Part shown: piece after piece, positions 12,501-28,594 of the stretch | How positions within the stretch are numbered: position 1 is the stretch's first letter | Layout: each line of letters opens with the position of its first letter | Assembly (NCBI GenBank): GCA_038728965.1 | Contig: JAVYSX010000001.1 | Span: forward strand, 30,586 to 94,585 | Reading direction: 5' to 3' | Origin: Thermoplasmatales archaeon | GTDB lineage: Archaea > Thermoplasmatota > Thermoplasmata > Thermoplasmatales > GCA-001856825 | DNA length: 64,000 bases | Notes under the pieces: generated by a model | The model's database searches: none | What the model saw: only the letters and a program-made list of their open reading frames with translations | Told to the model about the DNA's origin: nothing | Position numbers and translations under genes: made by a program

Positions 12501-13073
12501 GTGAGCGGTACGAAAGTTGTAATAGGAGGAATTCCGGGTGTTGGAAAGACAACAGTATTACAGTATCTTACAGATTCGGGAATCGATGTGGAAAACTTTG
12601 GAGATATTATGCTGAAAGAGGCGCTATCCAGGGGCTATGTTGATAACAGAGATCAGATGAGGAAAATGCCGCTGGAACTGCAGCTTGAAATCCAGAAAAA
12701 GGCAGCCGAGTATTTCTCTGAAAAGGAATCTGTAGTTATAGATACGCACCTTTCTGTAAGGACTAAGATCGGGTTCCTCCCCGGCCTTCCCCGGAACATC
12801 CTGGAAATAATCAGACCCGACCTTATAATTTCTCTGGAAGCTGATCCGCACGAAATATTCCTTAGGCGTAGCAATGATAGCACCAGGGCCAGGGACAGCG
12901 AAACAGAAGCTGACATAAAAGCGCATATTGATATGAACAGGATGTATGGAACAGTATATTCTGCTATAGCCGGCTGCGCGCTGATGACCGTAAAAAATGA
13001 AACGAATAAAGCAGAAGATGCCGCGAGGGAAATAATTCTTGCAATAAAAGGAAATGATAATAAAAAATTTTAG
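12501..13073 (+). CDS. adkA: archaeal-type adenylate kinase
   Basis: P-loop GIPGVGKTT at the N-terminus. 190 aa, the size and layout of archaeal AdkA. GTG start preceded by AGAGGTGA. Confidence 0.8.
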   Translation: MSGTKVVIGGIPGVGKTTVLQYLTDSGIDVENFGDIMLKEALSRGYVDNRDQMRKMPLELQLEIQKKAAEYFSEKESVVIDTHLSVRTKIGFLPGLPRNILEIIRPDLIISLEADPHEIFLRRSNDSTRARDSETEADIKAHIDMNRMYGTVYSAIAGCALMTVKNETNKAEDAAREIILAIKGNDNKKF

Positions 13074-14194
13074 ACTAGGGTTTCAGAGGGGGTTCTGCCT
13101 ATCGAAGTGAGATACGTCAGGGCAAGGAACCTGTAGAATACGTGAGCAAACTTAGAGTAAGGCGCATATGCAATGAGCATGAACACAAGTATTAGGTGAG
13201 ATGCATAAACGTAGTATGCACTGATAGTGTTCATCAGTCTCAGTATTTCCAAGGAAAAACCGGTGATTACGATGAGAGAAAGCAATATGATAAAGTACCA
13301 ATCGAAGTATGTTTCAGCCTTCGGAATTTTTTTCGAAATCCTACTTTCGATTGCGATGACTATGCCGGGGAAGATGACTACTAAACCTATGTTTCCTATT
13401 ATATTCTGGGGTTCCCCTATTAGAAGGTGAGAAAATCCTAACAAATGAATTTCAAGGGCTCCTACGAATGTTGCCAAAAGGAGGGCTATGAAACCGTAGA
13501 ACACCAAGATATGAGAGTAGTACCTTGTGTGATTTGATCCGCATCTGTTAAAGTTTGAATGTAAAAGAAAGATCTTCAGGGTAATCAGCGCTGATTTTAA
13601 AAACGGTATTTCACCCTTCTTATCCTCTTTTAATGCTCTATAATATCTCCAAGACCCATAACCCAGGGAAAATATAGCAAATAACCCGACTGCAATTCCC
13701 GCATAGTCCACAAGATTAAACGGTATGAAAGAAGAGTAGTATATTGGCCCCGAATTGGGTATAGAAAGGTGGAAGATATAGTATACAAGGAAGAAAAGGG
13801 CAATCGGGATTATAGTAAATATAGGAATAAACCACTTTTCTCTGAATGCTTTCCCCAGAAAACTTGGCCAAGAGTAATGTGTTATCACAACATTCCTAAG
13901 GGCTGTCATTACGCTGCCTGGTTTCGCATTTCTTGGACACTCCTTGGAGCAATCACCGCACTCATGGCACATCCAGATGTCTGCGTCTTTGAGAAGCCGG
14001 TCCTTTAACCCCCACTGTGACCATATCATCTCCTTCCTCGGAAACGGATTTACATCCGGGCTAAGTGGGCAGGCAACAGTGCATACTGAGCATTGCATGC
14101 AGATCTTTAAATCAGATCCTCCAAATTTGATAACATCCCTTACAAAGGAGCTGTCAAATTTCCCTTCACTTCTGATGACATTTCCGGTAGACAT
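13070..14194 (-). CDS. qmoC: QmoC: HdrC-like 2x[4Fe-4S] domain fused to HdrE/NarI-like haem-b membrane domain
   Basis: CMQCSVCTVACP and CHECGDCSKECP motifs, followed by about 6 TM helices containing His residues. Last gene of the apr-qmo operon. Its stop overlaps the adkA stop tail-to-tail. Confidence 0.85.
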   Translation of the reverse strand: MSTGNVIRSEGKFDSSFVRDVIKFGGSDLKICMQCSVCTVACPLSPDVNPFPRKEMIWSQWGLKDRLLKDADIWMCHECGDCSKECPRNAKPGSVMTALRNVVITHYSWPSFLGKAFREKWFIPIFTIIPIALFFLVYYIFHLSIPNSGPIYYSSFIPFNLVDYAGIAVGLFAIFSLGYGSWRYYRALKEDKKGEIPFLKSALITLKIFLLHSNFNRCGSNHTRYYSHILVFYGFIALLLATFVGALEIHLLGFSHLLIGEPQNIIGNIGLVVIFPGIVIAIESRISKKIPKAETYFDWYFIILLSLIVITGFSLEILRLMNTISAYYVYASHLILVFMLIAYAPYSKFAHVFYRFLALTYLTSIGRTPSETLV

Positions 14195-14196
14195 TG

Positions 14197-16425
14197 CTAG
14201 AGCCCCCTATAAGGATTCGGGCCGAAGGCCTTCACAGTTTTGACAAATTCATTCACTACATTCGATATCCTATTCCAGTCAGATAGTTCCACCTGTTGAA
14301 TCCTAAGACGTTCGGGTTCCAGTGCAAGGTTCTCGAATGTACCTTTGAGACCCTCTAGCCTCAGACTGGCAAGCTCGGATCCCCTTATAAAGTGACATTG
14401 ATAGTCCTTGCCATATTTGCATCCAAGCATTAGAATTCCATCAATCCCGGCAGAGAGCGCATCCGCTATCAAGACTGAATTAACGGAGCCTAGACACCTA
14501 ACTGGGATCACCCTGACTTCGTCAGAGTACTTTAGACCGTTCTGAGCGGCTATGTCAAGTGCAGGGTAAGCATCATTCTCGCATGCAAAGACAAGTATCC
14601 TGAGTTTGTCATCGCTGTCCGGAGCTTTGATAGTTTTTAGCATACTGTGTATTTGCTCAACGGAATATAGGTTGAATGATATTGCCTGAACTGGGCAGGC
14701 GCCCATACATATTCCGCAATCTCGGCATCTAAGCGGATTGTATAGGGGATACGTCTTTTCATCTTCATCAAGAGCCCCAAATGGACACTCCTCCGTGCAT
14801 CTCCTGCATTGAGTGCATCTCTGAAGTGATATCGATATATGATCATTTTCCAGGATACGGGGCGGTTCTACGATCTCCCCCCGTGATGCAAGTTCTACTG
14901 CTTTTATAGCTTTCATCGCTGCTCCCCGCGCATCTTCCATGCATTCGATAATTGTGGATGGTGACTTCACGCTACCCGCTGGGAAAATACCTGTTCTCCG
15001 AGATTCGTAGGGGAAGCAAATATAATGAGATTCTGGGAATCCATCGCTAAGCGTTGGCAATTCTGGACCCTGCCTGTATTTGAGGTTCAAAATCCTCTCT
15101 CCACCGCTGGCGCTGTTTCCCTCTTTGAGTGGCACTGGATTCAGGTGCTCGTAAATGAGGGGGCCAGATTCAGGATGCTCTTCCTTAACATTATAGAGGC
15201 CGTACATGCTAGAGAGCATCCCAACAGCCAGTACAACTCTATTGACGACGAGATCGAAATCCGTGTTCAGTGTTGTGTCCTTGAGCCGCAAAGATACTGC
15301 CCTGCCTTCCGTATCAAACACTATATCTTCTACATCTGCCTTCGCCAGAAAAATTTCGGGATCCCTTTGTACCTTTTTATAGAATTCCTCATATATACCA
15401 AGTGCCCTAATATCTTTGTAAAAAATATATACCTTAGATCCCTTTATTCTTTCCCTTATCACGAGTGCCTCTTTAAGCGAGGTAAGACAGCACACCGTAG
15501 AACAGTAAGGTACATTTTCTGGGTCCCTCTGACCGGCGCATAGGATGAAAGCAAATGACTTCGGCGAATCCTGTGAGTTCAGTTCGCCTTTTTTTCTGCG
15601 GAGGTAAGATTCAAGTTCCAAGTTTGTCATAATTAGAGGGCTCTGCCCGTACTTCATTTTAGTAATTTTTCGGGCATCATATAAATTCCAGCCCGTAGCT
15701 ACTACAATTGACCCTACGTTAAGATTTAACTCCCCGTCATCGCTTCTAACATTTACACTGAACGCTCCGGGCTGACCAGATATGCTCGTAACGGTGCTGG
15801 ATGTCATAACTTTTAAATTTACCATTTTCGACAATTCATCTATCTTTTCAGTCAAGAATTTTTTGGCGTCAATGAGATTTGAATAGGGCGATTGCATGGG
15901 AAGGACCTTACCGTAGAGGTTCAGCTTTCCGCCAAGCTTCTCTTCCCTCTCCACCAAAAACGCATTGTATCCTGCCTTTGAGATTTCAAGCGATGCGGTT
16001 ATACCTGTGATTCCTCCTCCTATGACCAAGATATCCTTCGACCGGCTTAGATCTAGATGAACGGGGAAGGACTTATTTTTTAGAGAAGCAAGCCCCATTC
16101 TGAAATAGTCCTCTGCAATTCCCTGCAAGTCATCGTTGACATCGTGGGACCAGACAACACCCTCCCGCAGATTGACCCTCTCTACTATGGCGTTTTCGAA
16201 CTGAAAATTCTGAATTTTCTCGCGCTGTGTGCAGGCGGCCAGCAGGATCTTGTCCGCCCCATCGGACAGGCACTCTCTGATGATGCCTGTCTCATTGCAG
16301 AGCTGATCGCAGATGTGAGCGGTGACCGAATATTCTTTCTCCGCTATTTCCTTCAGTTTCTGTAGGTCCAATTTTCCTCCAATACCGCATCCTCTGCATA
16401 TGAATGCCCTCATTTTATCGTTCAT
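14197..16425 (-). CDS. qmoB: QmoB: HdrA-like flavoprotein with ferredoxin insert and C-terminal MvhD-like domain
   Basis: FAD fold VIGGGITGITASLE. CTQCRRCTEECP and CRDCGICMGACP. MvhD-like tail (LVFACENDAYPALD...RCLGSV). Start reassigned to the ATG at 16425, which forms an ATGA overlap with the qmoA stop. The tracked extension to 16566 runs inside qmoA. Confidence 0.85.
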   Translation of the reverse strand: MNDKMRAFICRGCGIGGKLDLQKLKEIAEKEYSVTAHICDQLCNETGIIRECLSDGADKILLAACTQREKIQNFQFENAIVERVNLREGVVWSHDVNDDLQGIAEDYFRMGLASLKNKSFPVHLDLSRSKDILVIGGGITGITASLEISKAGYNAFLVEREEKLGGKLNLYGKVLPMQSPYSNLIDAKKFLTEKIDELSKMVNLKVMTSSTVTSISGQPGAFSVNVRSDDGELNLNVGSIVVATGWNLYDARKITKMKYGQSPLIMTNLELESYLRRKKGELNSQDSPKSFAFILCAGQRDPENVPYCSTVCCLTSLKEALVIRERIKGSKVYIFYKDIRALGIYEEFYKKVQRDPEIFLAKADVEDIVFDTEGRAVSLRLKDTTLNTDFDLVVNRVVLAVGMLSSMYGLYNVKEEHPESGPLIYEHLNPVPLKEGNSASGGERILNLKYRQGPELPTLSDGFPESHYICFPYESRRTGIFPAGSVKSPSTIIECMEDARGAAMKAIKAVELASRGEIVEPPRILENDHISISLQRCTQCRRCTEECPFGALDEDEKTYPLYNPLRCRDCGICMGACPVQAISFNLYSVEQIHSMLKTIKAPDSDDKLRILVFACENDAYPALDIAAQNGLKYSDEVRVIPVRCLGSVNSVLIADALSAGIDGILMLGCKYGKDYQCHFIRGSELASLRLEGLKGTFENLALEPERLRIQQVELSDWNRISNVVNEFVKTVKAFGPNPYRGL

Positions 16426-17669
16426 TTGCCACCCCTCACACTCACAACCTTTTGAAGCGCCTTCAAAACGGCCCCTGCCGCTGTCTCGTTCGACTGTCTC
16501 ACGTCCATAGGCCTGACAGCTACACCAGAACCGTAGATACCGTCCTGATCCACAACAAACCCCCATTCATCGTATAGAACTCCCTCTATCCTCTCTTCCT
16601 TGCCTTCAGGCTGCATCCCCGTCGCGAGAACAACAAGGTCAAATTCCTTCGTCACTTTTCTACCAGCTACTGTGTCTTCCACACGAACAAGAAGATTCCC
16701 TTTCTCGTTGCCGACAACCCTTGTTACCCTCCCCCTTGTAAACTTTACTGCACTATCCCCCCTGATCCTTCTCAGGAAATTTTCATTTAGGCCGTATGCC
16801 CGGATGTCAATGTAAAATATCTCTATCTCAGAATCAGGGCACTGTTCACGTATGTAGAGAGCCTCCTTCATTGAAGAGAGACAGCATATCTGAGAGCAGT
16901 AGGGCAGGTTATTTTCATCCCTCGATCCGGCGCATTGCACAAATGCGACTTTCTTCGGTCTCCTTCCATCGGACAATCTTATTATTTTGCCCTTGGTGGG
17001 TCCGTTGGGGGACGCCATCCTCTCAAGAATTATGTTGGTGATAACGTCTTTGTATTTCCCATAGCCAAGACCATATATATTTGCTGCGTCGTACGGCTTC
17101 CATCCCGTTGCTATTATAACTGACTTAGATACAACTTTAATTGCATCTTCCTTTTGGTCAAGATCTATGGCACCATATGGGCAGGCTTCAACACATTTTG
17201 AGCACTCCTTCCCCTTGCAGTATTCTCCGTCTATTGCGTACATTGATGGGTACGCGTATGGGCTTGGAAGATAGACGGCTTTAGTGCTCCCTAGCGACAG
17301 ATTAAAAGTATCAGGCCTCTCTACCGGACATACAGATACGCACTCTCCGCATGCGGTACACCTGTTGTTCACATATCTCGGCTTTATCAATATTCTGGAA
17401 TCGAAATAATCCCCGTCCCTAACTATGTTTTGAACGTGAGCATTCGTAAGGAGAACTATATTACCGAGCGTTTTCATCGTTTTTGTATATATCTCGAGGC
17501 CGCACTGAGGAGGGCACATCTTTGGAAAATATTTGAAAAGCTGGACTACGCGTCCTCCTATGTAAGGATTCTTCTCTGCCAATGCAACAGTAAGACCGAA
17601 TTCAGCAGCTTCAAGGGATGCAGTGATTCCTGAAGGACCCCCGCCTACAACGAGCAGATCAACATTCAA
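16422..17669 (-). CDS. qmoA: QmoA: HdrA-like FAD/FeS flavoprotein
   Basis: LLVVGGGPSGITASLEAA at residue 5. CTACGECVSVCP and CSKCVEACP. TTG start with GGTGA 6 nt upstream. Confidence 0.85.
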   Translation of the reverse strand: MNVDLLVVGGGPSGITASLEAAEFGLTVALAEKNPYIGGRVVQLFKYFPKMCPPQCGLEIYTKTMKTLGNIVLLTNAHVQNIVRDGDYFDSRILIKPRYVNNRCTACGECVSVCPVERPDTFNLSLGSTKAVYLPSPYAYPSMYAIDGEYCKGKECSKCVEACPYGAIDLDQKEDAIKVVSKSVIIATGWKPYDAANIYGLGYGKYKDVITNIILERMASPNGPTKGKIIRLSDGRRPKKVAFVQCAGSRDENNLPYCSQICCLSSMKEALYIREQCPDSEIEIFYIDIRAYGLNENFLRRIRGDSAVKFTRGRVTRVVGNEKGNLLVRVEDTVAGRKVTKEFDLVVLATGMQPEGKEERIEGVLYDEWGFVVDQDGIYGSGVAVRPMDVRQSNETAAGAVLKALQKVVSVRGGK

Positions 17670-17696
17670 AACATGTCACCGAAGGGGAAAAAATGA

Positions 17697-19637
17697 TCAG
17701 ATGGTGTAATCCGCCACCTGAACGAAAGGCACTTTCTGGATTTCCCAGATTCCGCTCTGTGGATCTTTCCTACCCACCGTGAAACACTTCCATTCGCTGT
17801 CATTAATGTCCGGATAATCTGTCCTGTAATAGTATCCCGGCCACCTCGTTTCCTTCCTAAATTTAAGGTGTTCCATGTGGGCTTCAGCAACGATCACCCT
17901 GTGATGCATTTCCCAGGCCCTCATGAGTTCGTGTAAATTTCTCGCTGCAATTTTCTCCATATCTTCCTTCAGGAAAAAGAGCTTCTTTAGACCCTCATTA
18001 AGCATGTGCTCGTTAGTTCTGAACCAAGTGGATGCTCCTCCCGCGTATTCATCCATTAATTTCTGAAGTCTCCAGAGAGCCTGCTTCGGAAATAGATAAT
18101 TTGGATTCACTTCTTCAGCCGTGGTGGCATTCTTGAACTGATCGTAGATCTCCATAGGGCTATAAATTTTCTTTTTAAGGTCTTCTATCTTAGAATCGTC
18201 AATTTCGACGTCACCCTGTTCAACTGCATACCTTATGGCTTCCTTTCCCGCGATCCTCCCTTCTGTGAATGAACCACTTGAAAATTTATGCGGACTGGCT
18301 CCTGCGTTATCGCCTACGGCGAACAGCCCCTTCACGGTTGTCATCCTGTTGTAGGCGAGAGGAAACAACTTTTTGTATTCATCTGGCATAAGATCCTCTG
18401 GTCCACGAACCCACAAACCTGCGCACCCTGAATGCGACCCCATGAGATATGGTTCAGCAGCAACAATTTCAGATGGTGCTTTTTCAGGCTCTGTGTTCGT
18501 AGCAGCCCAAAGGAGGGCTTGGTCTATCGTCATATCCAAGAAGTCCTCCCACGCATCCTCAAGTAGCTTTTTAGTGTTCTTAGGGTCCCCTGCAGAGAGT
18601 TTCTGCAGAGCTTCCTCGGTTCTCATATATATGGGTCCCCTGCCCTGAACCATTTCCTCTATCATCTGGTGATTTCTGAGCGGTGTAGGAACTGGAGATG
18701 CGTTGGCGTACGGTTTGTATTTCTCTATCGCTGCTGTATTTTCAGTGTAGTCCATTCCATAGGCGTTTGTGGCTCTGCTCTTGAACAGAAGGAACCAGGC
18801 ACCAACTGGGCCGTAGCCATCTTTGAAACGTGTTGGTATGAATCTATGCTCCATCTGAGTTGTGTGCGCTCCCACCTCTATGGCAGCTGCATAACCCGAA
18901 CCCGTGTTGAAAACCGCATACCATATCCTGCCCATGCCCTCCCCTGTGCTTTTTGGTCTGAACAGACCTGTTGCACCCCCAGTTGCTATGATGACAGCCT
19001 TGGACTTGAAGACGTAAAATACAGGATCCCTCACGCTGAAACCTACTGCGCCTGCAACCTTACCTGCATCATTCTTGTCAAGGAGGAGATGCGTTATGAA
19101 GACCCTTTCGAATATGTTATCCTCGCCAATCGCCTTTTTAGCTGCTTCCGCTACTATTGGCTTGTATGATTCTCCGTTTATCATTATCTGCCATCTTCCT
19201 TCCCTTACGTACTTCCCATTTTCGTCTTTCCAGATGGGAAGCCCCCACTTTTCGAACAGGTGAACTGAGTCGTCCACATTTCTAGCATAGTCAATAACGA
19301 GGTCTTCCCTTGACACTCCCATCATATCCAAGGTGACATACCTTGCAAACTCCTCTAGCGTGATTGGTTTATTGTTAGTGAACTGAGATCTTCCAGATAG
19401 CCCTAGGTAACAATTTATTGCGGAAAGACCGTGGGCAACGGCGCCGCTCCTTTCAATTGCAGCTTTTTCAACCAGTGTAACCTTTTTGCCGGCTGCTTTA
19501 GCCCAATAAGCAGCTTCATAAGCCGCACCGCAGCCAGACATACCCCCTCCAATTATAAGTACGTCTGTAGAAATGACCTTCGTTTGGACATCAGAAGCTT
19601 TATAAATTTCTGTTTTTTTATACGACTCTACCGCCAC
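17697..19637 (-). CDS. aprA: adenylylsulfate (APS) reductase alpha subunit
   Basis: 646 aa flavoprotein. DVLIIGGGMSGCGAAYEAAYWAK...SGAVAHGLSAINCYLG is typical of AprA. Immediately downstream of aprB. Confidence 0.9.
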   Translation of the reverse strand: MAVESYKKTEIYKASDVQTKVISTDVLIIGGGMSGCGAAYEAAYWAKAAGKKVTLVEKAAIERSGAVAHGLSAINCYLGLSGRSQFTNNKPITLEEFARYVTLDMMGVSREDLVIDYARNVDDSVHLFEKWGLPIWKDENGKYVREGRWQIMINGESYKPIVAEAAKKAIGEDNIFERVFITHLLLDKNDAGKVAGAVGFSVRDPVFYVFKSKAVIIATGGATGLFRPKSTGEGMGRIWYAVFNTGSGYAAAIEVGAHTTQMEHRFIPTRFKDGYGPVGAWFLLFKSRATNAYGMDYTENTAAIEKYKPYANASPVPTPLRNHQMIEEMVQGRGPIYMRTEEALQKLSAGDPKNTKKLLEDAWEDFLDMTIDQALLWAATNTEPEKAPSEIVAAEPYLMGSHSGCAGLWVRGPEDLMPDEYKKLFPLAYNRMTTVKGLFAVGDNAGASPHKFSSGSFTEGRIAGKEAIRYAVEQGDVEIDDSKIEDLKKKIYSPMEIYDQFKNATTAEEVNPNYLFPKQALWRLQKLMDEYAGGASTWFRTNEHMLNEGLKKLFFLKEDMEKIAARNLHELMRAWEMHHRVIVAEAHMEHLKFRKETRWPGYYYRTDYPDINDSEWKCFTVGRKDPQSGIWEIQKVPFVQVADYTI

Positions 19638-19642
19638 TTAGC

Positions 19643-20110
19643 TCACCTCGATACTGCCCTCTTCTTTACATTAATCTTTTCCGGATCCTTGCACTCGTGC
19701 CCCCCTGCAAGCCCAGGTCCCTTCAGCCCGTCAAAAGAAGGTTGCTCAAACCCCTCGAACGGATTGACAGAATCCCATGGAGTTGTTCTTATCGGGAACT
19801 TGAACCTCAGAATTTTCCCATTCCTGAAGCGCACTGTCCAGAGTATGGAGTCTGTTCCCCTCTTTGGTGTCACTTTCGCGCCCAGAGGGACGAAGTCCGC
19901 GTAACCTCTTGCTTCTATTGCATCTTTTGGACACGTTTTTATGCAGGAGAAGCACTCCCAACACATGTCTGGCTCCTGATTGTAGGCTTTCATCTTGACC
20001 ATGTCGAGCACCATCAGGTCGTTTGGACATATGTATTGGCATGCTGTCCTGGCAAGCGCTTTACAACCATCACATTTCTCCGGATTTACATAAGTCGGCA
20101 TTATCATCAC
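19643..20110 (-). CDS. aprB: adenylylsulfate (APS) reductase beta subunit
   Basis: MPTYVNPEKCDGCK...CQYICPNDLM...CWECFSCIKTCP gives two [4Fe-4S] motifs plus the AprB tail. The start may be the ATG at 20101 rather than 20110. Confidence 0.9.
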   Translation of the reverse strand: MMIMPTYVNPEKCDGCKALARTACQYICPNDLMVLDMVKMKAYNQEPDMCWECFSCIKTCPKDAIEARGYADFVPLGAKVTPKRGTDSILWTVRFRNGKILRFKFPIRTTPWDSVNPFEGFEQPSFDGLKGPGLAGGHECKDPEKINVKKRAVSR

Positions 20111-20405: not shown

Positions 20406-21011
20406 ATGCCGACTAAAACTGCCCTTGAGGTCGTAGTGGAAATCGAGAGAGAAGATTGTGTTATAACAAATGCTCTTGCAGACGTCAATTGCACCATCGT
20501 TAGACTTCTCATGAGGCCAGACTATACATTGCATCGTGTTAAACCGACTGAATCCTGTGACCCCATTGACGTTTCCAGGCTGAAGAATCTCAAGCTACGC
20601 CGGGTCGGGAACGGTGCATTTTGGATAGAAAGTCCGAGCTGTTCTGTATGTAACTTGCTTTCAAGGATTCACTTCATAAACCCTATCGGAACTCACTCTG
20701 TTGGCAAAAATCACGTCCAGGTTAGGTTTTTAGTGGCATCTAGAGGGGATCTGAAACTTTTCAAAAAGGAACTGGATAATAGTGGATTAAAGTACACAAT
20801 ACTGAGCATCTCTCCATTCATGCATCAGGAGCTAACACAAAAAGAAAGATTTGCATTGGAGGAGGCCCTGAAGAGGGGTTACTTTGATATTGAGGGTAGG
20901 ATATCGCTCACAGAACTATCCCACTTCCTTGGAGTAACGCCGGCATCGCTTTCTGAGCTTCTCCGAAGGGGGCTCAAGAAGACAGTATCCAACTACCTTT
21001 ACGAATATTAA
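20406..21011 (+). CDS. HTH_10 (bacterio-opsin-activator type) transcriptional regulator with Cys-containing N-terminal domain
   Basis: C-terminus LTQKERFALEEALKRGYFDIEGRISLTELSHFLGVTPASLSELLRRGLKK matches the Bat-type HTH pattern. N-terminal domain has Cys 18, 29, 51 and a CSVC pair. Divergent from aprB. Confidence 0.7.
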   Translation: MPTKTALEVVVEIEREDCVITNALADVNCTIVRLLMRPDYTLHRVKPTESCDPIDVSRLKNLKLRRVGNGAFWIESPSCSVCNLLSRIHFINPIGTHSVGKNHVQVRFLVASRGDLKLFKKELDNSGLKYTILSISPFMHQELTQKERFALEEALKRGYFDIEGRISLTELSHFLGVTPASLSELLRRGLKKTVSNYLYEY

Positions 21012-21045: not shown

Positions 21046-21420
21046 TCAACTCCATGATAGCAGTATATCAACGTCCTCCGCGTAGGCGAAGAAGTATGCA
21101 ATGCCCACAATTTCAAAACCTGCAACTAGGTTGCTTTTGTCAATACCGAATGTCTGCGCAGCGAGAGAACACATGCGCAACATAACACCATTATCAATTG
21201 CCTCCCTAACCCTGTTTTTTATCTTTTGATCCAGTCTCTCAAAGACCTGTTGTTTCCCGATAAGGACACCATCCAAATAAAAAAATACTAAAGTCTCGTA
21301 ATCCATTACTGCGGCTGCATTGGCATAGCCAAGCATTGTCTCGATCCTCGTGTTGTCGCTCGGAGGAACCATAGAAAAAAATGCGATTTTTTTTCTTCTT
21401 GAACTTTCTTGATTACTCAT
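21046..21420 (-). CDS. DsrE/DsrF-family sulfur-relay-like protein (stand-alone)
   Basis: 124 aa. The beta-alpha-beta pattern KKIAFFSMV...VFFYLDGV...LRMCSLAAQTFGI parallels the DsrE/TusD layout, including the conserved Cys position. A TTAAATTT box about 27 nt before the ATG suggests a leaderless mRNA. Confidence 0.55.
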   Translation of the reverse strand: MSNQESSRRKKIAFFSMVPPSDNTRIETMLGYANAAAVMDYETLVFFYLDGVLIGKQQVFERLDQKIKNRVREAIDNGVMLRMCSLAAQTFGIDKSNLVAGFEIVGIAYFFAYAEDVDILLSWS

Positions 21421-22000: not shown

Positions 22001-22351
22001 ATGGCCGAACAAACAAAGAATAGGATTGTCGAGGTCAGGATGTCAGACGGATCTACCAAAGAAATAAATATTGACGAGGACGGTTTTATATTAAATCCAT
22101 CTGAATGGTGCCCCGAATTTGTATCTGCAATATCTGCAGAAGAAGGAATCTCAAATCTGACCGAAGATCACTGGAAGGTGATAAATTATCTTAGGCAATA
22201 CTATCTCACCTACGATAGTTGCCCTCCTATAAGGATGCTAACTAAGAGTACAGGTTTCGATCTTAAAAAGATATACGAATTGTTCCCAACAGGTCCCGCT
22301 AAGGGAGCTTGCAGGATGGCAGGGGCTCCGAAACCAACGGGGTGCGTCTGA
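22001..22351 (+). CDS. dsrC: DsrC (dissimilatory sulfite reductase gamma / trisulfide carrier)
   Basis: C-terminal arm ...GACRMAGAPKPTGCV carries both conserved Cys residues, 10 residues apart, with the penultimate Cys present. ATG 22001 has AAGGTG 6 nt upstream. The tracked GTG at 21992 is less likely. Confidence 0.9.
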   Translation: MAEQTKNRIVEVRMSDGSTKEINIDEDGFILNPSEWCPEFVSAISAEEGISNLTEDHWKVINYLRQYYLTYDSCPPIRMLTKSTGFDLKKIYELFPTGPAKGACRMAGAPKPTGCV

Positions 22352-22654
22352 ATGATATACCTAGTATGTCCCATATGCGGATACGCCATCGACATTTTTA
22401 CGGAGGAAGAGGCTTCAAATCCAATAAGATCGAAAAGAATGAAATATCTCCTGACCAGGGATCAGGTTTGTCCGAATTGCATTAATGCCATACCAAAATG
22501 TGAAAAAGTAGAGGCAGCGGAAAATGATATCCCGATTTTGAGGGTAAATATAGATAAGGTGGAATTAGAACAATTTTCTCGATACCTTAAAGAAAAGGGT
22601 TACGTCGTTGGCACTGAGTTTGCGCTTAATGAATTCAGAGGTGGTAAGAAATGA
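22352..22654 (+). CDS. uncharacterised 100-aa zinc-ribbon protein embedded between dsrC and dsrA
   Basis: CPICG (res 6-9) and CPNC (res 40-43) form a 4-Cys ribbon. The C-terminal ~45 aa look like a small folded domain. The ATG abuts the dsrC TGA, with GGGGTG 7 nt upstream. The stop forms an ATGA overlap with dsrA. Confidence 0.7.
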   Translation: MIYLVCPICGYAIDIFTEEEASNPIRSKRMKYLLTRDQVCPNCINAIPKCEKVEAAENDIPILRVNIDKVELEQFSRYLKEKGYVVGTEFALNEFRGGKK

Positions 22655-23835
22655 CCGAATTACCGGAAGAAGTAGTAAAAGGAAGGAAGATCCTCGAAGA
22701 TCTAAAGAGAGGTTCATGGCCAAATTTTGTAAAGGAAGCGCAGAAAACAAGGTATCCAGTAGATCTTTACGGGGCATCGCTGGCTCTAAAGCGCGATCTA
22801 TTCACTACCGGCGGGTACGTTTCTGTCCCTGGAGCCCCTACTGGAATATTGATGAGAGTTACAAGTAGACCTGATATAGGAGAGAGCGCGAACATAGTAA
22901 GAGTTCTGATTCCTTCAGGCAACTTCGTAACCTCCGATATGCTAGACAAGCTCTGTGAACTTGCTGATAAGTATGGAGTTGGTCTGATACATGCTATAAG
23001 TACTGGAGAGGATATAGAAATACCGGGGATACCTAAGGAAAGAATAAGAGATTTCATAGCAGAGCTCAGGCAGAATGGCTACGAATGTGGCTCCACCGGG
23101 GATGCCTTCAGAGCAACAACAACTTGCGTTGGAAGTGCCCTCTGCGAGTATTCAAATCTGAATACCGAGGAATTCAGAGACAAGTTCTATGACATTTATA
23201 ACGACTTTGCCAAGTATCCGACGTTCCCGCATAAGGTGAAGGTCAAGGTATCTGGTTGCCCAATAGATTGCGGAAGGGCAACTCAGAAGGCCGATATTGG
23301 AATAATAGGATCGTGGAAAGGTGCCCCAGAGATAGACGAGAATTTGGTGAAGAATTTGACTGAGGCAGAAATTAATGAAATTGTGAGCGGATGCCCTACC
23401 AGTGCAATATCCAAGGAAGGTAGCACAATCAGGATAAAGGGGGAAGACTGCAACCAGTGCATGCTCTGTGTGAGAAAAAGCAAAGGCGCTATAATGCCTG
23501 GGAAGGAGAAACAATATCTAATTTACATTGGAGGAAAACTGAGGGGCAAAAAAGGCCCACTAACTGGTAAATTATTAACGAGACTAAATACACCTGAGGA
23601 AGCACTGAATATTATCAACAGGATCGTGGAGGTCTATATTGATCAGGCAGCCAGAAAGGAGAGAATCGGTGATATGCTATTACGGGTCGGAATGAAAGGC
23701 TTCATTGACATGCTAAAGGAGAAACCAAAGGCAATGAATTCTAAGGATCTGCGAACGAATGTTTTCTACGCTGTCGACGAGAAAGGTCGAGAAGAAATTC
23801 CTAAGGAAGTAAGTAAGGCTGTGGGGGGTGATTGA
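22651..23835 (+). CDS. dsrA: dissimilatory sulfite reductase alpha subunit
   Basis: GSWPNFVKE N-terminal motif. Sirohaem-[4Fe-4S] motifs CX5C (TCVGSALCE) and CX3C (SGCPIDC). Ferredoxin insert CPTSAI...CNQCMLCV. Confidence 0.92.
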   Translation: MTELPEEVVKGRKILEDLKRGSWPNFVKEAQKTRYPVDLYGASLALKRDLFTTGGYVSVPGAPTGILMRVTSRPDIGESANIVRVLIPSGNFVTSDMLDKLCELADKYGVGLIHAISTGEDIEIPGIPKERIRDFIAELRQNGYECGSTGDAFRATTTCVGSALCEYSNLNTEEFRDKFYDIYNDFAKYPTFPHKVKVKVSGCPIDCGRATQKADIGIIGSWKGAPEIDENLVKNLTEAEINEIVSGCPTSAISKEGSTIRIKGEDCNQCMLCVRKSKGAIMPGKEKQYLIYIGGKLRGKKGPLTGKLLTRLNTPEEALNIINRIVEVYIDQAARKERIGDMLLRVGMKGFIDMLKEKPKAMNSKDLRTNVFYAVDEKGREEIPKEVSKAVGGD

Positions 23836-23836
23836 A

Positions 23837-24898
23837 ATGCAGGAAGGGCCACCAAGACCTTACACGAAATTCATCCCTGCTTATTTGAAGGATTCAGTAG
23901 GAAAATGGAGGACACATAGGATTGTAGAGCCAGGAATAATGGAGCACACTGATATTAGCGGAAAGAAAATATATACGGTTCGAGCTGGTTCCACACCGAA
24001 TGGCAGATACAGTACGGAAACTATGAGGAAGATATCGGCCCTCGCACGCAAATACTCCGGGGGAAGTATGAGATTTACGGGCGCCATTAACATGGAGTTC
24101 ATTACCAAGGATCTCAAAGATGCTATATCTCTCAAAACGGACCTCGAAGATTTGGGCTTTCCCATCGGTGGATGGGATGGCCATCTCTGGAGCTTAACAT
24201 CGTGCGCTGGTTACTTCCACTGCGCTTTGGCCGCGACGGATGCTCCATCCATCATTCAAAACATCGCAAATGCGATTGGCAAGTACTTTGACAAGGAGGA
24301 ACTTCCAGCAAAACTGACTGTGGCCGCATCCGGGTGTCCCAGCTCCTGTGGGAACAGCTTCCTTACGGATATATCGATAAGTGGCATCCATACAGAGATC
24401 CCTATCATAACTAAAGACGTAGCGAAATGCGATCTTCAGGGTACCGCTTATACCTGTCCCGTGGGCGCCATCCAGATCAAGCAGAACCCCGATGGTTCAA
24501 AGAGTCTGGAAATCAGAGGTAATCTGTGTATAGGATGCGGTCTCTGCGTAGGTGCCTGTGGCGGCATTATTTTTGAAACCCCTGAGAAAACCGACGGTCA
24601 CGCAATAGCAATAGGCGGAAAGGCAGTTCCGTCGAGGGTGGGTACGACACTTTCCAGAATAATAATTCCATATCTGCCTAATGAACCGCCGTATTACCCA
24701 AAGACAGTTGCTGCCGTACTGAGAATAGTTGATACATGGCGAAAGGATGCAAAAAAAGGAGAGAGGATCGCTGATTGGGTCGATAGAATTGGCTGGGAGA
24801 AGTTCTTTGAGAAAACAGGTCTTCCGTATTTCGAGCAGAGTATGGAATATCTCGATATCAGGGGTATAACGACGCTGAGGGACGGGGGCACAAGATAG
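23837..24898 (+). CDS. dsrB: dissimilatory sulfite reductase beta subunit
   Basis: CX5C (SCAGYFHC) and CX3C (GCPSSC). Ferredoxin insert CPVGAI...CIGCGLCVGAC. ATG 23837 has GGGGGTG 7 nt upstream. The tracked GTG at 23828 is the alternative start. Confidence 0.92.
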   Translation: MQEGPPRPYTKFIPAYLKDSVGKWRTHRIVEPGIMEHTDISGKKIYTVRAGSTPNGRYSTETMRKISALARKYSGGSMRFTGAINMEFITKDLKDAISLKTDLEDLGFPIGGWDGHLWSLTSCAGYFHCALAATDAPSIIQNIANAIGKYFDKEELPAKLTVAASGCPSSCGNSFLTDISISGIHTEIPIITKDVAKCDLQGTAYTCPVGAIQIKQNPDGSKSLEIRGNLCIGCGLCVGACGGIIFETPEKTDGHAIAIGGKAVPSRVGTTLSRIIIPYLPNEPPYYPKTVAAVLRIVDTWRKDAKKGERIADWVDRIGWEKFFEKTGLPYFEQSMEYLDIRGITTLRDGGTR

Positions 24899-24925: not shown

Positions 24926-25678
24926 ATGAGCATAGGGGACTGGGCTATTATTGCGTATGCGTACGTCGCTGTAGCCGTATTCTTAGTTGGTACGGTGGTA
25001 ACCCTTGTGAGGTGGATATTCCTGCCAAAGGGTCCCTCAAAGACGTTCCTGGGGTATCCCTACCTTTTTACGTATCCGGGGATTGATTCAAGGCTTCGTG
25101 CGTTCAAGAATATACTATCCAGAATTTTCCTTTTTTCCAGCATGAAGAATGACCCAATTCTCAGAATTTCATCGGCGATTTTCCACTGGACCCTGTGGAT
25201 TGTGATAGCCGCACATCTAGACATTGTTCTCATGCCATATTTTTCAGCTACAGGCATAAGCGAGAAAACCATGTCTATGATAGGCGATTATCTCGGAACT
25301 TCATTGGCCATTGTCATGGTAGCTTTCGGGACGTACCTGCTGATCAGAAGGTTCACCAACATCTACGTGAGAAAAACGAGCTATATGTCAGATTATTTTT
25401 CTATAATCCTCATAATCGCCCTGGGTGTATCAGGAATAGTCATGAGGTTCACGCTTCCCCCTCTATTTGCCTATAACTATGTCACGCCCTTCATATATTC
25501 CCTTATACATTTTTCTCCCATTCAGGTTCCTATCTTTACCCAGTTCCTGGTGCATTTTCTCATCGCATCAACCCTTTTGATCTACTTTCCGTTCAGCAAG
25601 TTCATGCACCCGTATTCTTTCTTTACCAACCCCACCATGTATTCAATTTTCCATCCCGGTGAAGTAAATGAAACCTAA
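24926..25678 (+). CDS. dsrM: DsrM (NarI/HdrE-like dihaem-b membrane quinol oxidoreductase subunit)
   Basis: 250 aa, about 5-6 TM helices with conserved His residues. GAGGTG Shine-Dalgarno sequence. Located between dsrB and dsrK. Confidence 0.8.
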   Translation: MSIGDWAIIAYAYVAVAVFLVGTVVTLVRWIFLPKGPSKTFLGYPYLFTYPGIDSRLRAFKNILSRIFLFSSMKNDPILRISSAIFHWTLWIVIAAHLDIVLMPYFSATGISEKTMSMIGDYLGTSLAIVMVAFGTYLLIRRFTNIYVRKTSYMSDYFSIILIIALGVSGIVMRFTLPPLFAYNYVTPFIYSLIHFSPIQVPIFTQFLVHFLIASTLLIYFPFSKFMHPYSFFTNPTMYSIFHPGEVNET

Positions 25679-27053
25679 GATTAGGGACATAATCCTTGAG
25701 AGCCCGAGCGGAAAGGCCGAGGAATGGTTACGGAAGCAAAAGAACCTCGAATGGGCAAAAACCACCTCCGAAAGGAGGGCCAAGGATCCTCTGCTGCAGG
25801 AGATAAAAGTAGCGAGGAACGAGGACGTGGATTACTTTTTAAATAGATTTGAGGAACTAAGAAAGAGCAAAGCTTTTGTTGCATTTATGGAAAGCTGCAC
25901 ACGTTGCGGTGAGTGCATTGATAAATGCCAGATGTTCATCGCTACAGGTGACCTCAACAATTCTCCCGTGGGTCGCGCTAATCTCGTGAGAGACATATAT
26001 AGAGCCAGAGGGAAAATAAAAAAAGAAGATATAAACCTGAATAGTCTTTATTCTTACTATTACCAGTGTACAGAATGCAGAAGATGTTCCGTCTTCTGTC
26101 CCGCAGGTATCGATCAATCAGAGATCACTAGGAACATTAGGAACATTCTGACTGATATGGGCCTAATACCCGAGTACGTGGCAGCTACCATGGCCCAGGT
26201 TTATAAAACAGGCAACAACATGGGCCTCAAGGACAAATTCATAAAGAATGTTACAGGTTTTCTAGAGGAGGAAATGCTTTCAGAAACAGGAAAGGAAATC
26301 AAGATCCCAGTTGATATGCAGCGTGCAGAGGTTCTTGTTGTCCCTTCTTCGGCTGACATAGCGGTCAACAACGATACCCTGAAGGGATACGCCAAAACCT
26401 TGTTTGCGCTGGGGAAAGACTGGACACTCTCATCGTCAGCGACTGAAGCTGCTAATTTCGGGACTTTCGCGAGCGAACGGCATATGAAAGAATTTGGAGA
26501 TATTGTCGTGAACGAGGCGCTCAGTAGGGGAGTAAAGCTCGTTGTTTGGGGAGAATGCGGTCACGGTTGGAGAACAGCGAATAACTATGTCAGATATGAA
26601 CTCGCAAAACACGGGATCCAGCTAAGGCATATACACCAGATAACGTGGAAAGCCATAGAGAGGGGTCAAATAAAGGTTGATAAAAATAAGAATGACGACC
26701 TGTACAACTATCACGATCCGTGTAATCTCGCCAGGGGGGGCAATCTTGTCAATGAGCCAAGATATGTCCTGAATGCTGTTGTGAGGGAGACAGTTGAATC
26801 GAAATTCACGAAAGAGAAGACGTTCTGTTGCGGTGCTGGCGGTGGACTTCTGGCTGATGAAAAAGAATGGAACGAGTACCGGGCTTGGGCGGGTTGGCCT
26901 GCGGTTTACTATTCCTGGAAAACAGGCTCCCACCATATGGTTTCCCCGTGTGCAATAGACAAAGCACAGTTTCCATACGTGATGAATTTTCACAAGGTCG
27001 ATATGCAGAATCACGGGCTCATGGACCTTGTAGGATATGCCATAGAGCTGTGA
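25668..27053 (+). CDS. dsrK: DsrK (HdrD-like catalytic FeS subunit with CCG domains)
   Basis: CTRCGECIDKCQ and CTECRRCSVFCP motifs. CCG-domain signatures (DPCNLARGG, FCCGAGGG). 11-nt overlap with dsrM. Confidence 0.88.
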   Translation: MKPKIRDIILESPSGKAEEWLRKQKNLEWAKTTSERRAKDPLLQEIKVARNEDVDYFLNRFEELRKSKAFVAFMESCTRCGECIDKCQMFIATGDLNNSPVGRANLVRDIYRARGKIKKEDINLNSLYSYYYQCTECRRCSVFCPAGIDQSEITRNIRNILTDMGLIPEYVAATMAQVYKTGNNMGLKDKFIKNVTGFLEEEMLSETGKEIKIPVDMQRAEVLVVPSSADIAVNNDTLKGYAKTLFALGKDWTLSSSATEAANFGTFASERHMKEFGDIVVNEALSRGVKLVVWGECGHGWRTANNYVRYELAKHGIQLRHIHQITWKAIERGQIKVDKNKNDDLYNYHDPCNLARGGNLVNEPRYVLNAVVRETVESKFTKEKTFCCGAGGGLLADEKEWNEYRAWAGWPAVYYSWKTGSHHMVSPCAIDKAQFPYVMNFHKVDMQNHGLMDLVGYAIEL

Positions 27054-27054
27054 G

Positions 27055-27915
27055 GTGAAAATGCAACCTAATTATGGTGAGAACACGGAAAATAATAGGA
27101 AAGTATATTTGGTCGGTGCAGGGCCAGGGAATCCCGACTACCTCACAGTCAAAGCTCTAAGACTTTTAAAGAGATGCGATGTCCTTCTCTATGATATACT
27201 GGTTGACCGTTCTATTGTGGAGCTATCACCACCATCCTGTCAGAGGATATGCGTCGGAGCCGAACACGGCACAGATCCGTTATACAAACAGGATAAGATA
27301 GACGCCCTCATGCTTTCCTACTATAAGATGGGAAAGATTGTGGTACGTTTGAAATCAGGTGACCCGTTCATATTCGGCAGGGGCGGGGAGGAGATAGAAT
27401 TTTTACGGGAAAATAACATTCCATATGAGATCATCCCCGGCCTTACATCTGCCATATCTGTTCCGAGTTCAGCGGGAATCCCTCTGACGCACAGGGACTA
27501 CTCTTCATCCGTACTGATAATCTCTGGTCACAGAAAATCCAACGGAATGGGAAACGACTGGAAAGAAATTGCGAAATTCAAAGGAACGATCGTCGTTTTG
27601 ATGGGCGTGGCAACTGCAGCAGAAATGGTTTCAAATCTAATATACAATGGGATGGATCGAACCACAGGGGTCGCTATCGTGGAGAATGGAACGAAGGATA
27701 ATCAGCGCACTTTCTTCTGTCATTTGCAGGAATTGCCTGCTCTCGTATCGAGGTGCGAAATCAAGGCGCCAAGTATCATAGTTATCGGAAAGGTGATCAA
27801 TGCGCTCCTTGACCGCGGAATTTTCCAAGTTAGTGATTTTCACAAGTCTAATTTGCAGCTCGCTGATCTGATATTTTCCCAATGCGAAGAGCAGGAGTTC
27901 GTGCGGGGGAGGTAA
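27055..27915 (+). CDS. cobA: uroporphyrinogen-III C-methyltransferase (SUMT, sirohaem branch)
   Basis: VYLVGAGPGNPDYLTVKA, DVLLYD and GDPFIFGRGGEE motifs. The start may be the ATG at 27061. Confidence 0.88.
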   Translation: MKMQPNYGENTENNRKVYLVGAGPGNPDYLTVKALRLLKRCDVLLYDILVDRSIVELSPPSCQRICVGAEHGTDPLYKQDKIDALMLSYYKMGKIVVRLKSGDPFIFGRGGEEIEFLRENNIPYEIIPGLTSAISVPSSAGIPLTHRDYSSSVLIISGHRKSNGMGNDWKEIAKFKGTIVVLMGVATAAEMVSNLIYNGMDRTTGVAIVENGTKDNQRTFFCHLQELPALVSRCEIKAPSIIVIGKVINALLDRGIFQVSDFHKSNLQLADLIFSQCEEQEFVRGR

Positions 27916-27916
27916 T

Positions 27917-28594
27917 ATGAAATTTGTACCTATAATGCTAAATACCGCTGGCAGAAAGCTCCTCATTATTGGAGGCGGAAAGGCCGCTGCACTGAAACTG
28001 AAATACTTAGTTTCGAGGTTTGATAAGATAACCGTTATATCGGACACCTTCAATGATATTGCCCCCACAGGTAACGTTGAAATGATAAAGCTTCACATCG
28101 CAGATACCGACATTCTCAATGAATTCGTAGATAGTGATACAATCGTGATCATTGCCAGCGACGATGATGAACTGAACGCTAGGATCAGGGAATACTGCGA
28201 AAAAAAGGGAATACTTTACAACAGCGTGGACAGGAAGGATAGCCCCTTTATTTTCCCCGCCGTACTTTATTCAAACAATGTTGTTGTGAGCGTTTCGACG
28301 GAGGGGAGATCTCCCTCGCTATCTAGGTTTCTGAAGAAGAAGATTGCCCAGACTGTTGAACAGTATTCCAGTGCTCTACCGGTAGTAGAGAAATTAAGAA
28401 GCGATATGCGTAACATGGAACACGGTAAGAGAGCAATTTACTTTGAGAATTTATTTAGGCATGATAATTTTTGGGAGCTCGTTAATAAAGGAGATTACGA
28501 TGGTGCTCTGAAATTGGCACGTAGTCTTTTGTTACTTGAAAATCCATCAAAGAGCAGCTATGAACCTATTAAAAATAAAAATAAATTAATTTAA
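27917..28594 (+). CDS. sirC: precorrin-2 dehydrogenase / sirohydrochlorin ferrochelatase (SirC/Met8/CysG-N-like)
   Basis: N-terminal Rossmann fold LLIIGGGKAAALKLKYL. 225 aa. Starts 1 nt after the cobA stop. Confidence 0.75.
   Translation: MKFVPIMLNTAGRKLLIIGGGKAAALKLKYLVSRFDKITVISDTFNDIAPTGNVEMIKLHIADTDILNEFVDSDTIVIIASDDDELNARIREYCEKKGILYNSVDRKDSPFIFPAVLYSNNVVVSVSTEGRSPSLSRFLKKKIAQTVEQYSSALPVVEKLRSDMRNMEHGKRAIYFENLFRHDNFWELVNKGDYDGALKLARSLLLLENPSKSSYEPIKNKNKLI

Follow-up and report, generated by a model that had tools for sequence, protein, structure and literature searches.

Which product is encoded between dsrC and dsrA in the sulfite reductase gene cluster of a Thermoplasmatales archaeon, and does it belong to the enzyme? 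The open reading frame (ORF) in question, hereafter X, occupies positions 22352-22654 on the forward strand of a stretch of 64,000 nucleotides (the window), taken from contig JAVYSX010000001.1 of the NCBI GenBank assembly GCA_038728965.1, and encodes a protein of 100 amino acids (aa) followed by a stop codon. X is best read as a member of a new DsrA-associated protein family and as an accessory module of dissimilatory sulfite reductase that has so far gone undescribed, analogous, not homologous, to DsrD. Its putative binding to DsrA is far better supported than its role; the more specific proposal, that X is bound to DsrA and modulates or stabilises the enzyme in the manner of DsrD without a part in catalysis, was drawn by analogy and is given about an even chance.

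The ATG of X (22352-22354) starts at the base directly after the dsrC stop codon TGA (22349-22351), forming a TGA-ATG stop-start junction at 22349-22354. At the other end, the stop codon TGA of X (22652-22654) overlaps the dsrA start codon ATG (22651-22653) in an ATGA at 22651-22654. A Shine-Dalgarno-like GGGGTG (22339-22344) is located 7 nucleotides (nt) 5' of the ATG of X, and a second such sequence, GAGGTG (22638-22643), is located for dsrA within the coding sequence of X, 7 nt before the dsrA start. The GGGGTG lies where DsrC ends in the invariant residues Thr-Gly-Cys-Val (ACG GGG TGC GTC), so that coding constraint accounts in part for its presence; the orthologues have GGATG or GGGATG at this position. 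At 22339-22351 of the window, the functional arm of DsrC and the ribosome-binding site of X thus use the same bases. Five cysteine residues are encoded (C6, C9, C40, C43 and C50). All signals described here are on the forward strand, and the coordinates, the GGGGTG spacing, the ATGA overlap and the cysteine positions reported in an initial annotation of this stretch were all re-derived.

Shadow ORFs of at least 100 aa on non-coding frames were numerous in the window. The length of an ORF alone is therefore no evidence for a gene, and conservation was used instead. A search of 5.8 billion proteins returned 13 homologues of X at 56-93% identity, all of them from Thermoplasmata or Thermoplasmatales metagenome-assembled genomes (MAGs) and either unannotated or carrying generic zinc-finger labels. 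Further archaeal homologues were found at 43-58% identity, resulting in a total of about 25 archaeal sequence clusters at 43-93% identity, and 25 positions were invariant in an alignment of 14 archaeal sequences. Between X orthologues, the proportion of nonsynonymous differences (pN) was 0.18-0.29 versus a proportion of synonymous differences (pS) of 0.72-0.97; the ratio of nonsynonymous to synonymous substitution rates (dN/dS) was 0.14 for the sole unsaturated orthologue pair. The AlphaFold2 model of X, calculated on the 14-sequence alignment, was compact and two-domained, with a predicted local distance difference test (pLDDT) score of 94 and a predicted template modelling (pTM) score of 0.82. 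It contained strands at residues 2-5 and 11-16, a helix at 24-35, a strand at 51-54 and helices at 69-82 and 89-95. For a bacterial two-domain homologue, AlphaFold2 gave a pLDDT of 91.4 and a pTM of 0.81. X is a real gene under purifying selection. A spurious ORF was ruled out by conservation, selection and fold confidence.

Several database entries of orthologues appear to carry wrong starts. Three entries of 92-93 aa (P0008, P0009 and P0013) lack C6, and all of them start at MCGY. Re-reading of the locus of P0008 (L004) recovered MIYLICPMCGY 5' of the called start, which was thus mis-called; the starts of the other two entries were probably mis-called as well, judging from their common first residues. 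The 115-aa call of P0005, whose locus (L005) was likewise re-read, overlaps dsrC and also appears to have a wrong start. Mis-called starts in orthologues would hide the Cys4 motif from automated surveys.

The gene order around X was compared in 15 loci of the archaeal type (the window, L001-L005 and L028-L036), in which the identity to X of the window went down to 43%. The gene directly 5' of X was dsrC in 15 of 15 loci. The gene directly 3' was dsrA in all of them save L030, whose contig stops just past X, and the loci of sufficient length run on into dsrB-dsrM-dsrK. Exactly one copy of X was present per locus, and no paralogue was detected in the window by a six-frame hidden Markov model (HMM) search. 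In the orthologous loci read at nucleotide level, a dsrC/X stop-start junction of 0-2 nt was kept in four of four, and the four-base overlap between X and dsrA in three of four; in the remaining one (L005) the stop codon and the next ATG abut. The reading of X in the initial annotation as co-translated with the core dsr genes is supported. The same annotation had named a lack of conserved homologues in dsr neighbourhoods as a finding that would speak against its reading; all homologues but one fragment were found there.

Two metagenome contigs of a close relative showed irregular dsr genes. In L029 (6300-8040), DsrA residues 1-292 run directly into DsrB residues 69-356, and in L028 (3313-4378) dsrB is spread over three frames. 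Both oddities are likely assembly or sequencing errors.

A profile search of 1.84 billion cluster representatives yielded 14 matches at E<=0.001 and extended the family beyond the archaea. The initial annotation had suggested that X could be lineage-specific; the family is not, since it occurs in Thermoplasmata and in four or more bacterial phyla. Four arrangements were found, all within dsr clusters. The first is dsrC-X-dsrA of the 15 Thermoplasmata loci. The second comprises a two-domain protein of 109-128 aa in uncultured bacteria, encoded in the order tusA-X-dsrA-dsrB-dsrC-dsrM-dsrK or X-dsrA-dsrB-dsrC. In the third, dsrA-dsrB-X-dsrC-dsrE-tusA, a protein of 56 aa consists of the N-terminal domain only (L022, 2462-2632; L023, 511-681), and dsrE, tusA and dsrEFH are found in the cluster. 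In the fourth, the N-terminal domain is fused in frame to the N-terminus of DsrA; this form was found in 64 clusters and occurs in Verrucomicrobiota, Planctomycetota, Chloroflexota and one member of the Acidobacteriota. The N-terminal domain is the sole part common to all four arrangements. The bacterial two-domain proteins were 21-36% identical to archaeal X, and the alignment of both groups (hhalign, 98.7%; E 2.7e-16; 99 columns) indicated homology over the full length. The DsrA of the bacterial two-domain group was only 59% identical to NC10-labelled DsrA.

Among the matches of the profile search was a 470-aa protein with the N-terminal domain fused to DsrA. A search with one fused protein recovered the 64 clusters (90% identity), which had lengths of 465-513 aa. 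Named sources were Verrucomicrobia, Planctomycetota and Chloroflexi/Anaerolineae, and the database labels were only 'sulfite reductase alpha subunit' or 'hypothetical'. Scanning one genome from each GTDB species with the bacterial alignment yielded 11 loci, which belong to Verrucomicrobiota, Planctomycetota and a single Acidobacteriota MAG. The Cys4 domain, the linker and DsrA formed a single uninterrupted ORF in 10 of these 11 loci; the 11th contains a premature stop, with DsrA homology resuming in another frame, which is probably an assembly frameshift. Mean pairwise identity within the fusions was 0.69 for the N-terminal domain, 0.31 for the linker and 0.73 for the DsrA core. With 26-36 aa, this variable linker is rich in Ala, Glu and Pro. 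The four cysteine residues and K31, R32, Y35, L36 and K39 were conserved in 64 of 64 fusions, and pN/pS of the fused N-terminal domain was 0.19.

DsrA encoded beside a free-standing two-domain X (P0110, L024) was 74% identical to the DsrA core of a fused Verrucomicrobia protein (P0059, L013), and fused DsrA proteins of different phyla were 52-63% identical to each other. Since the former likeness exceeds that between phyla, fusion or fission with loss of the C-terminal domain probably took place more than once. The divergence between archaea and bacteria was 34-43% in X's N-terminal domain versus 36-41% in DsrA; these similar values fit an old association, short of proof.

The position of homologues relative to dsrA and dsrC had been proposed initially as a check, and all but one fragment proved to be dsr-linked: every homologue adjoins dsrA, sits inside it or lies between dsrB and dsrC. 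The exception, L021 (5001-5498), is an ORF of 165 aa in which the Cys4 domain is followed by a stretch resembling the C-terminus of DsrK, with a Pyr_redox_2-rhodanese gene as neighbour; this member may have arisen by misassembly or be a remnant.

The constant location of X by dsrA, its coupling to it and the repeated fusion via a non-conserved flexible linker argue, as a Rosetta-stone argument, that X is a physical partner of DsrA. The initial annotation had considered DsrAB or DsrC as partner; the 64 fused clusters point to DsrA rather than DsrC. According to the proposed mechanism, stop-start coupling on the dsrC-X-dsrA-dsrB message would keep the synthesis of X in step with that of DsrA, to which X would bind permanently as an additional subunit. 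The working part would be the Cys4 domain, which in bacteria is tied to the N-terminus of DsrA by the flexible linker, and the C-terminal domain would act as a non-covalent anchor that was rendered dispensable by the fusion. This division into working part and docking aid is suggested by the presence of the Cys4 domain in all four architectures and of the C-terminal domain in free-standing proteins only. X may modulate or stabilise DsrAB, or its handling of DsrC, in early-branching DsrAB clades without DsrD.

The comparison with DsrD underlies the functional part of this proposal. DsrD is a small protein that is encoded next to dsrAB, was pulled down with DsrAB and acts as an allosteric activator; in Bilophila it is joined to DsrB, and organisms that carry the earliest dsrAB forms lack it (PMC8794893). 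X resembles DsrD in its small size (approximately 80-100 aa), in its location beside dsrAB and in its occasional fusion to a DsrAB subunit. It was found in lineages without DsrD, and the N-domain-only gene of L022 and L023 occupies the dsrD slot of sulfate reducers, after dsrB. The two proteins differ in structure: DsrD is a winged helix without a metal site, whereas X is, by sequence and model, a Cys4 ribbon with a helical domain. They also differ in partner, since DsrD fuses to DsrB and X associates with or fuses to DsrA, and in the kind of evidence, since the activator function was shown for DsrD and is a prediction for X. No DsrD (PF08679) gene was present in the annotated flanks of L001-L005, and X gave no match to the DsrD profile at E<=1 in Pfam or NCBIfam. 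Membership of X in the DsrD family was rejected on the missing profile match and on the predicted strands and Cys knuckles in place of a winged helix, and the initial impression that X is unlike DsrD or any other named Dsr protein was borne out.

Four points weigh against a permanent DsrA-bound modulator. X was not found in six-frame HMM searches beside three related Hydrothermarchaeota-like dsrAB pairs (L025-L027), so that DsrAB can function without X. The standalone form consisting of the N-terminal domain (L022 and L023) is without anchor and tether alike, a weak point of the split into anchor and working part. The analogy with DsrD is the sole ground for proposing a modulatory role. Finally, the Cys4 site, the CxxCG-aromatic first knuckle and the flexible Ala/Pro-rich tether would suit a mobile redox carrier equally well.

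The last point was weighed on the properties of the N-terminal domain (aa 1-55; 22352-22516), in which strand, knuckle, strand, helix 24-35, knuckle and strand follow each other. At knuckle 1 (C6-P-I-C9, followed by G10-Y11; 22367-22378), C9-G10-Y11 are invariant in the 14-sequence alignment, and C6 is missing only from the three entries of 92-93 aa. The basic helix motif K28-R29-M-K-Y32-L33 (22433-22450) has K28, R29 and L33 invariant throughout the family, and knuckle 2 (C40-P-N-C43; 22469-22480) is without the following Gly of rubredoxin. The four cysteine residues of the knuckles were invariant or nearly so in the archaeal and mixed alignments. A fifth, Cys50 (22499-22501), is located 7 residues past knuckle 2; it is invariant in the archaeal clade only and replaced by Arg or Leu in bacterial relatives. 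As in zinc ribbons, two Cys-x2-Cys knuckles lie beside or between short strands (2-5, 11-16, 51-54), here with helix 24-35 between them, and the weak Foldseek matches of the domain were ribosomal and MCM zinc ribbons. X carries the features proposed for its own family, namely four Cys with a K-R-x2-Y-L helix and adjacency to dsrA. The domain is best called a Cys4 zinc ribbon with rubredoxin-like spacing, and the invariant KR..YL helix that separates its knuckles sets it apart.

The main rival reading, a real if minor possibility, is that X could be a tethered or docked rubredoxin-like electron carrier, with an iron Cys4 site feeding the ferredoxin-domain clusters of DsrA and DsrB as part of the physiological electron input of DsrAB. 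The source from which DsrAB takes its first electrons is not established for most organisms. In some organisms, DsrL-2 acts as a donor (PMC8794893). Rubredoxin (PF00301) shares with X's N-terminal domain a length of about 50 aa, four cysteine residues at near-identical positions, three short strands and a first knuckle of CxxCG-aromatic type; rubredoxins of the PDB align to X over residues 4-53 with the spacing of C6, C9, C40 and C43 retained and CPICGY placed on CxxCGY, the AlphaFold2 model has the topology strand-knuckle-strand ... knuckle-strand, and the variable Ala/Glu/Pro-rich linker of 26-36 aa resembles a swinging-arm tether. Against this, the rubredoxin matches were not significant (E 0.17-3), and no rubredoxin was among the Foldseek matches of either model (archaeal X and bacterial homologue). 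The Gly that rubredoxin has after its second knuckle is missing (CPNC-I, CPxC-L), the invariant KR..YL basic helix stands in place of the rubredoxin loop and aromatic core, and zinc and iron sites cannot be told apart by sequence.

Among Pfam and NCBIfam models no family matched X, with all matches at 11-15 bits versus cut-offs of 25-62. The generic archaeal zinc ribbons (Zn_ribbon_3, DUF2116, UPF0148 and Spt4/RPABC4 labels) share the two CPxC knuckles, and some records of the family are so labelled; unlike X, they are without the KR..YL helix, the C-terminal domain and the dsr context, and their scores were 13-15 bits versus cut-offs of 25-27. Membership in rubredoxin, UPF0148, Spt4 or MqsA was rejected on the lack of a significant match. 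The initial description of X as an uncharacterised zinc-ribbon protein stands.

Electron entry also features in a broader evolutionary proposal. The 'basal type II' DsrAB of Verrucomicrobiota, Planctomycetota, Chloroflexota and Methylomirabilota was described as sister to the archaeal reductive type of Thermoplasmatota and Thermoproteota, and the split was dated to approximately 3.5 billion years ago (PMC12948486, 2026). X is present on both sides of this split, with Thermoplasmata as the archaeal members. X might have been a third component that dissimilatory sulfite reductases possessed ancestrally, from the first functional ones on and before the split, a built-in module for electron entry or DsrC handling which disappeared later in classical sulfate reducers or gave way there to DsrD and DsrL; this extension was considered distinctly unlikely.

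The C-terminal domain (aa 56-100; 22517-22651), with G83-Y84 invariant, shares ancestry with the PCP_red-like domain found in the bacterial two-domain relatives. The bacterial domain matched Pfam PF08369 (PCP_red) with E 7e-5 and 23 bits versus a cut-off of 32.5, and its profile matches in the PDB were ChlB 457-509 and 2KRU. It aligned with PCP_red by hhalign (90%, E 1.6e-6) and with 2KRU by Foldseek at a probability of 1.0, a template modelling (TM) score of 0.69, a root-mean-square deviation of 1.6 A and 32% identity; 2L09 was also matched. The C-terminal domain of the bacterial two-domain relatives is thus a PCP_red fold, resembling in sequence and fold the C-terminus of BchB/ChlB (2KRU, 2XDQ_B) and Nostoc asr4154 (2L09). 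The C-terminal domain of X in the window gave no direct PCP_red match (hhalign 3.6%; no Foldseek match), and the first helix of PCP_red is replaced by a strand. The last approximately 30 residues of X (F..y.r..GY..T) align to the bacterial domain via the family alignment, and the archaeal domain was treated as a putative divergent derivative of the PCP_red fold, a link that is transitive via the archaeal-bacterial alignment described above. The initial annotation needs correction in this respect, since the domain does have relatives. The contexts of the two differ, PCP_red occurring in a nitrogenase-like enzyme and X in a sulfite reductase.

The PCP_red fold forms the C-terminal part of BchB/ChlB and lies near the protochlorophyllide site in structures of dark-operative protochlorophyllide oxidoreductase (DPOR). 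A search of the literature on PCP_red/PF08369 found nothing relevant, and a DPOR structure paper is silent on the role of the domain. With such a fold in the bacterial relatives, X could be an assembly or maturation factor of DsrA that acts in siroheme or Fe-S insertion or caps the DsrA-side structural tetrapyrrole pocket via the PCP_red-derived domain. Siroheme-synthesis genes adjoin dsr clusters with X (27055-28594 in the window; L006), and in modelling of the related Diaforarchaeon MV2-Eury, DsrB was reported without the insert that blocks the structural heme in Archaeoglobus fulgidus (bioRxiv 10.1101/2021.12.28.474277). Maturation was nevertheless held to be quite improbable: in the fusions the Cys4 domain remains and the PCP_red domain is gone, so that the tetrapyrrole-linked part is dispensable, the stoichiometric coupling and permanent fusion suit a subunit over a transient chaperone, and the archaeal domain is without a direct PCP_red match.

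A role of X as a zinc-ribbon regulator that binds nucleic acids and controls the dsr operon at the level of transcription or translation is very improbable, for although zinc ribbons with basic helices are often nucleic-acid binders, weak generic matches to TFIIB-type and MqsA-type ribbons were obtained and Joint Genome Institute (JGI) labels of some members are Spt4/RPABC4-like, X is covalently fused to an enzyme subunit in 64 clusters, has no helix-turn-helix (HTH) and no known RNA-binding domain, had all family matches far under the cut-offs and is preceded upstream by a separate HTH_10 regulator, so that a transcriptional regulator was rejected on the fusions to DsrA and the small regulator suggested initially is, in that sense, unlikely.

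The accessory module bound to DsrA, as preferred here, was compared with the published record. Among energy enzymes, DsrAB is one of the most ancient and best studied; the accessory proteins that go with it (DsrC, D, L, N, T, EFH and MKJOP) serve as genomic markers of sulfur metabolism. In the literature search, no paper was found that connects dsrA with an N-terminal extension, a rubredoxin-like domain, a zinc ribbon or a zinc finger, and neither a Pfam or NCBIfam model nor a relative with a solved structure was found. A survey of extra dsr-linked genes reported dsrT only (PMC6018805). Term searches gave no mention of X in dsr synteny and diversity studies, including PMC10504309, or in a paper on Diaforarchaeal Dsr. 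Modelling of DsrABC of MV2-Eury comprised the A, B and C subunits only, without X (bioRxiv 10.1101/2021.12.28.474277). Early-branching sulfite reductases probably carry an extra part that was left out of published enzyme models. X falls in exactly those clades that were put at the base of functional sulfite reduction (PMC12948486). If X binds DsrAB, structural and evolutionary reconstructions of a 'minimal' ancestral Dsr system would be incomplete, 64 fused 'sulfite reductase alpha subunit' entries would be mis-described, and the question would become whether early DsrAB worked with a DsrD-like activator or had its own electron-input module.

The genes flanking X on the forward strand were identified by profile matches. 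The gene dsrC (22001-22351; PF04358, E 5e-35) has its true start at ATG 22001 and encodes 116 aa with both C-terminal cysteine residues present. Downstream of X follow dsrA (22651-23835; TIGR02064, E 3e-83), the product of which is the putative binding partner of X, dsrB (23828-24898; TIGR02066, E 1e-95), dsrM (24926-25678) and dsrK (25668-27053), the latter two also being part of the conserved block. These four genes are separated by small overlaps or gaps.

Divergent from the dsr operon, the minus strand carries at 13070-20110 aprB, aprA, a qmoA-like HdrA gene, a qmoB-like HdrA+MvhD gene and a qmoC/HdrC-like gene. The Diaforarchaea of PMC7174415 were reported without Sat and AprAB. Given the apr cluster, the lineage of the window may reduce sulfate or adenosine 5'-phosphosulfate (APS), beyond sulfite alone; no sat gene was seen among the window ORFs tested. 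Between the apr and dsr clusters, an HTH_10 regulator (20406-21011, forward strand) and a DsrE-like gene (21046-21420, minus strand) are located, and the same pair is found upstream of dsrC in L005. Scans for tRNA genes and Rfam families gave no match in the 64-kb window. A Kae1-Bud32 fusion (7114-8685) and other housekeeping genes of the window are consistent with an archaeal chromosome.

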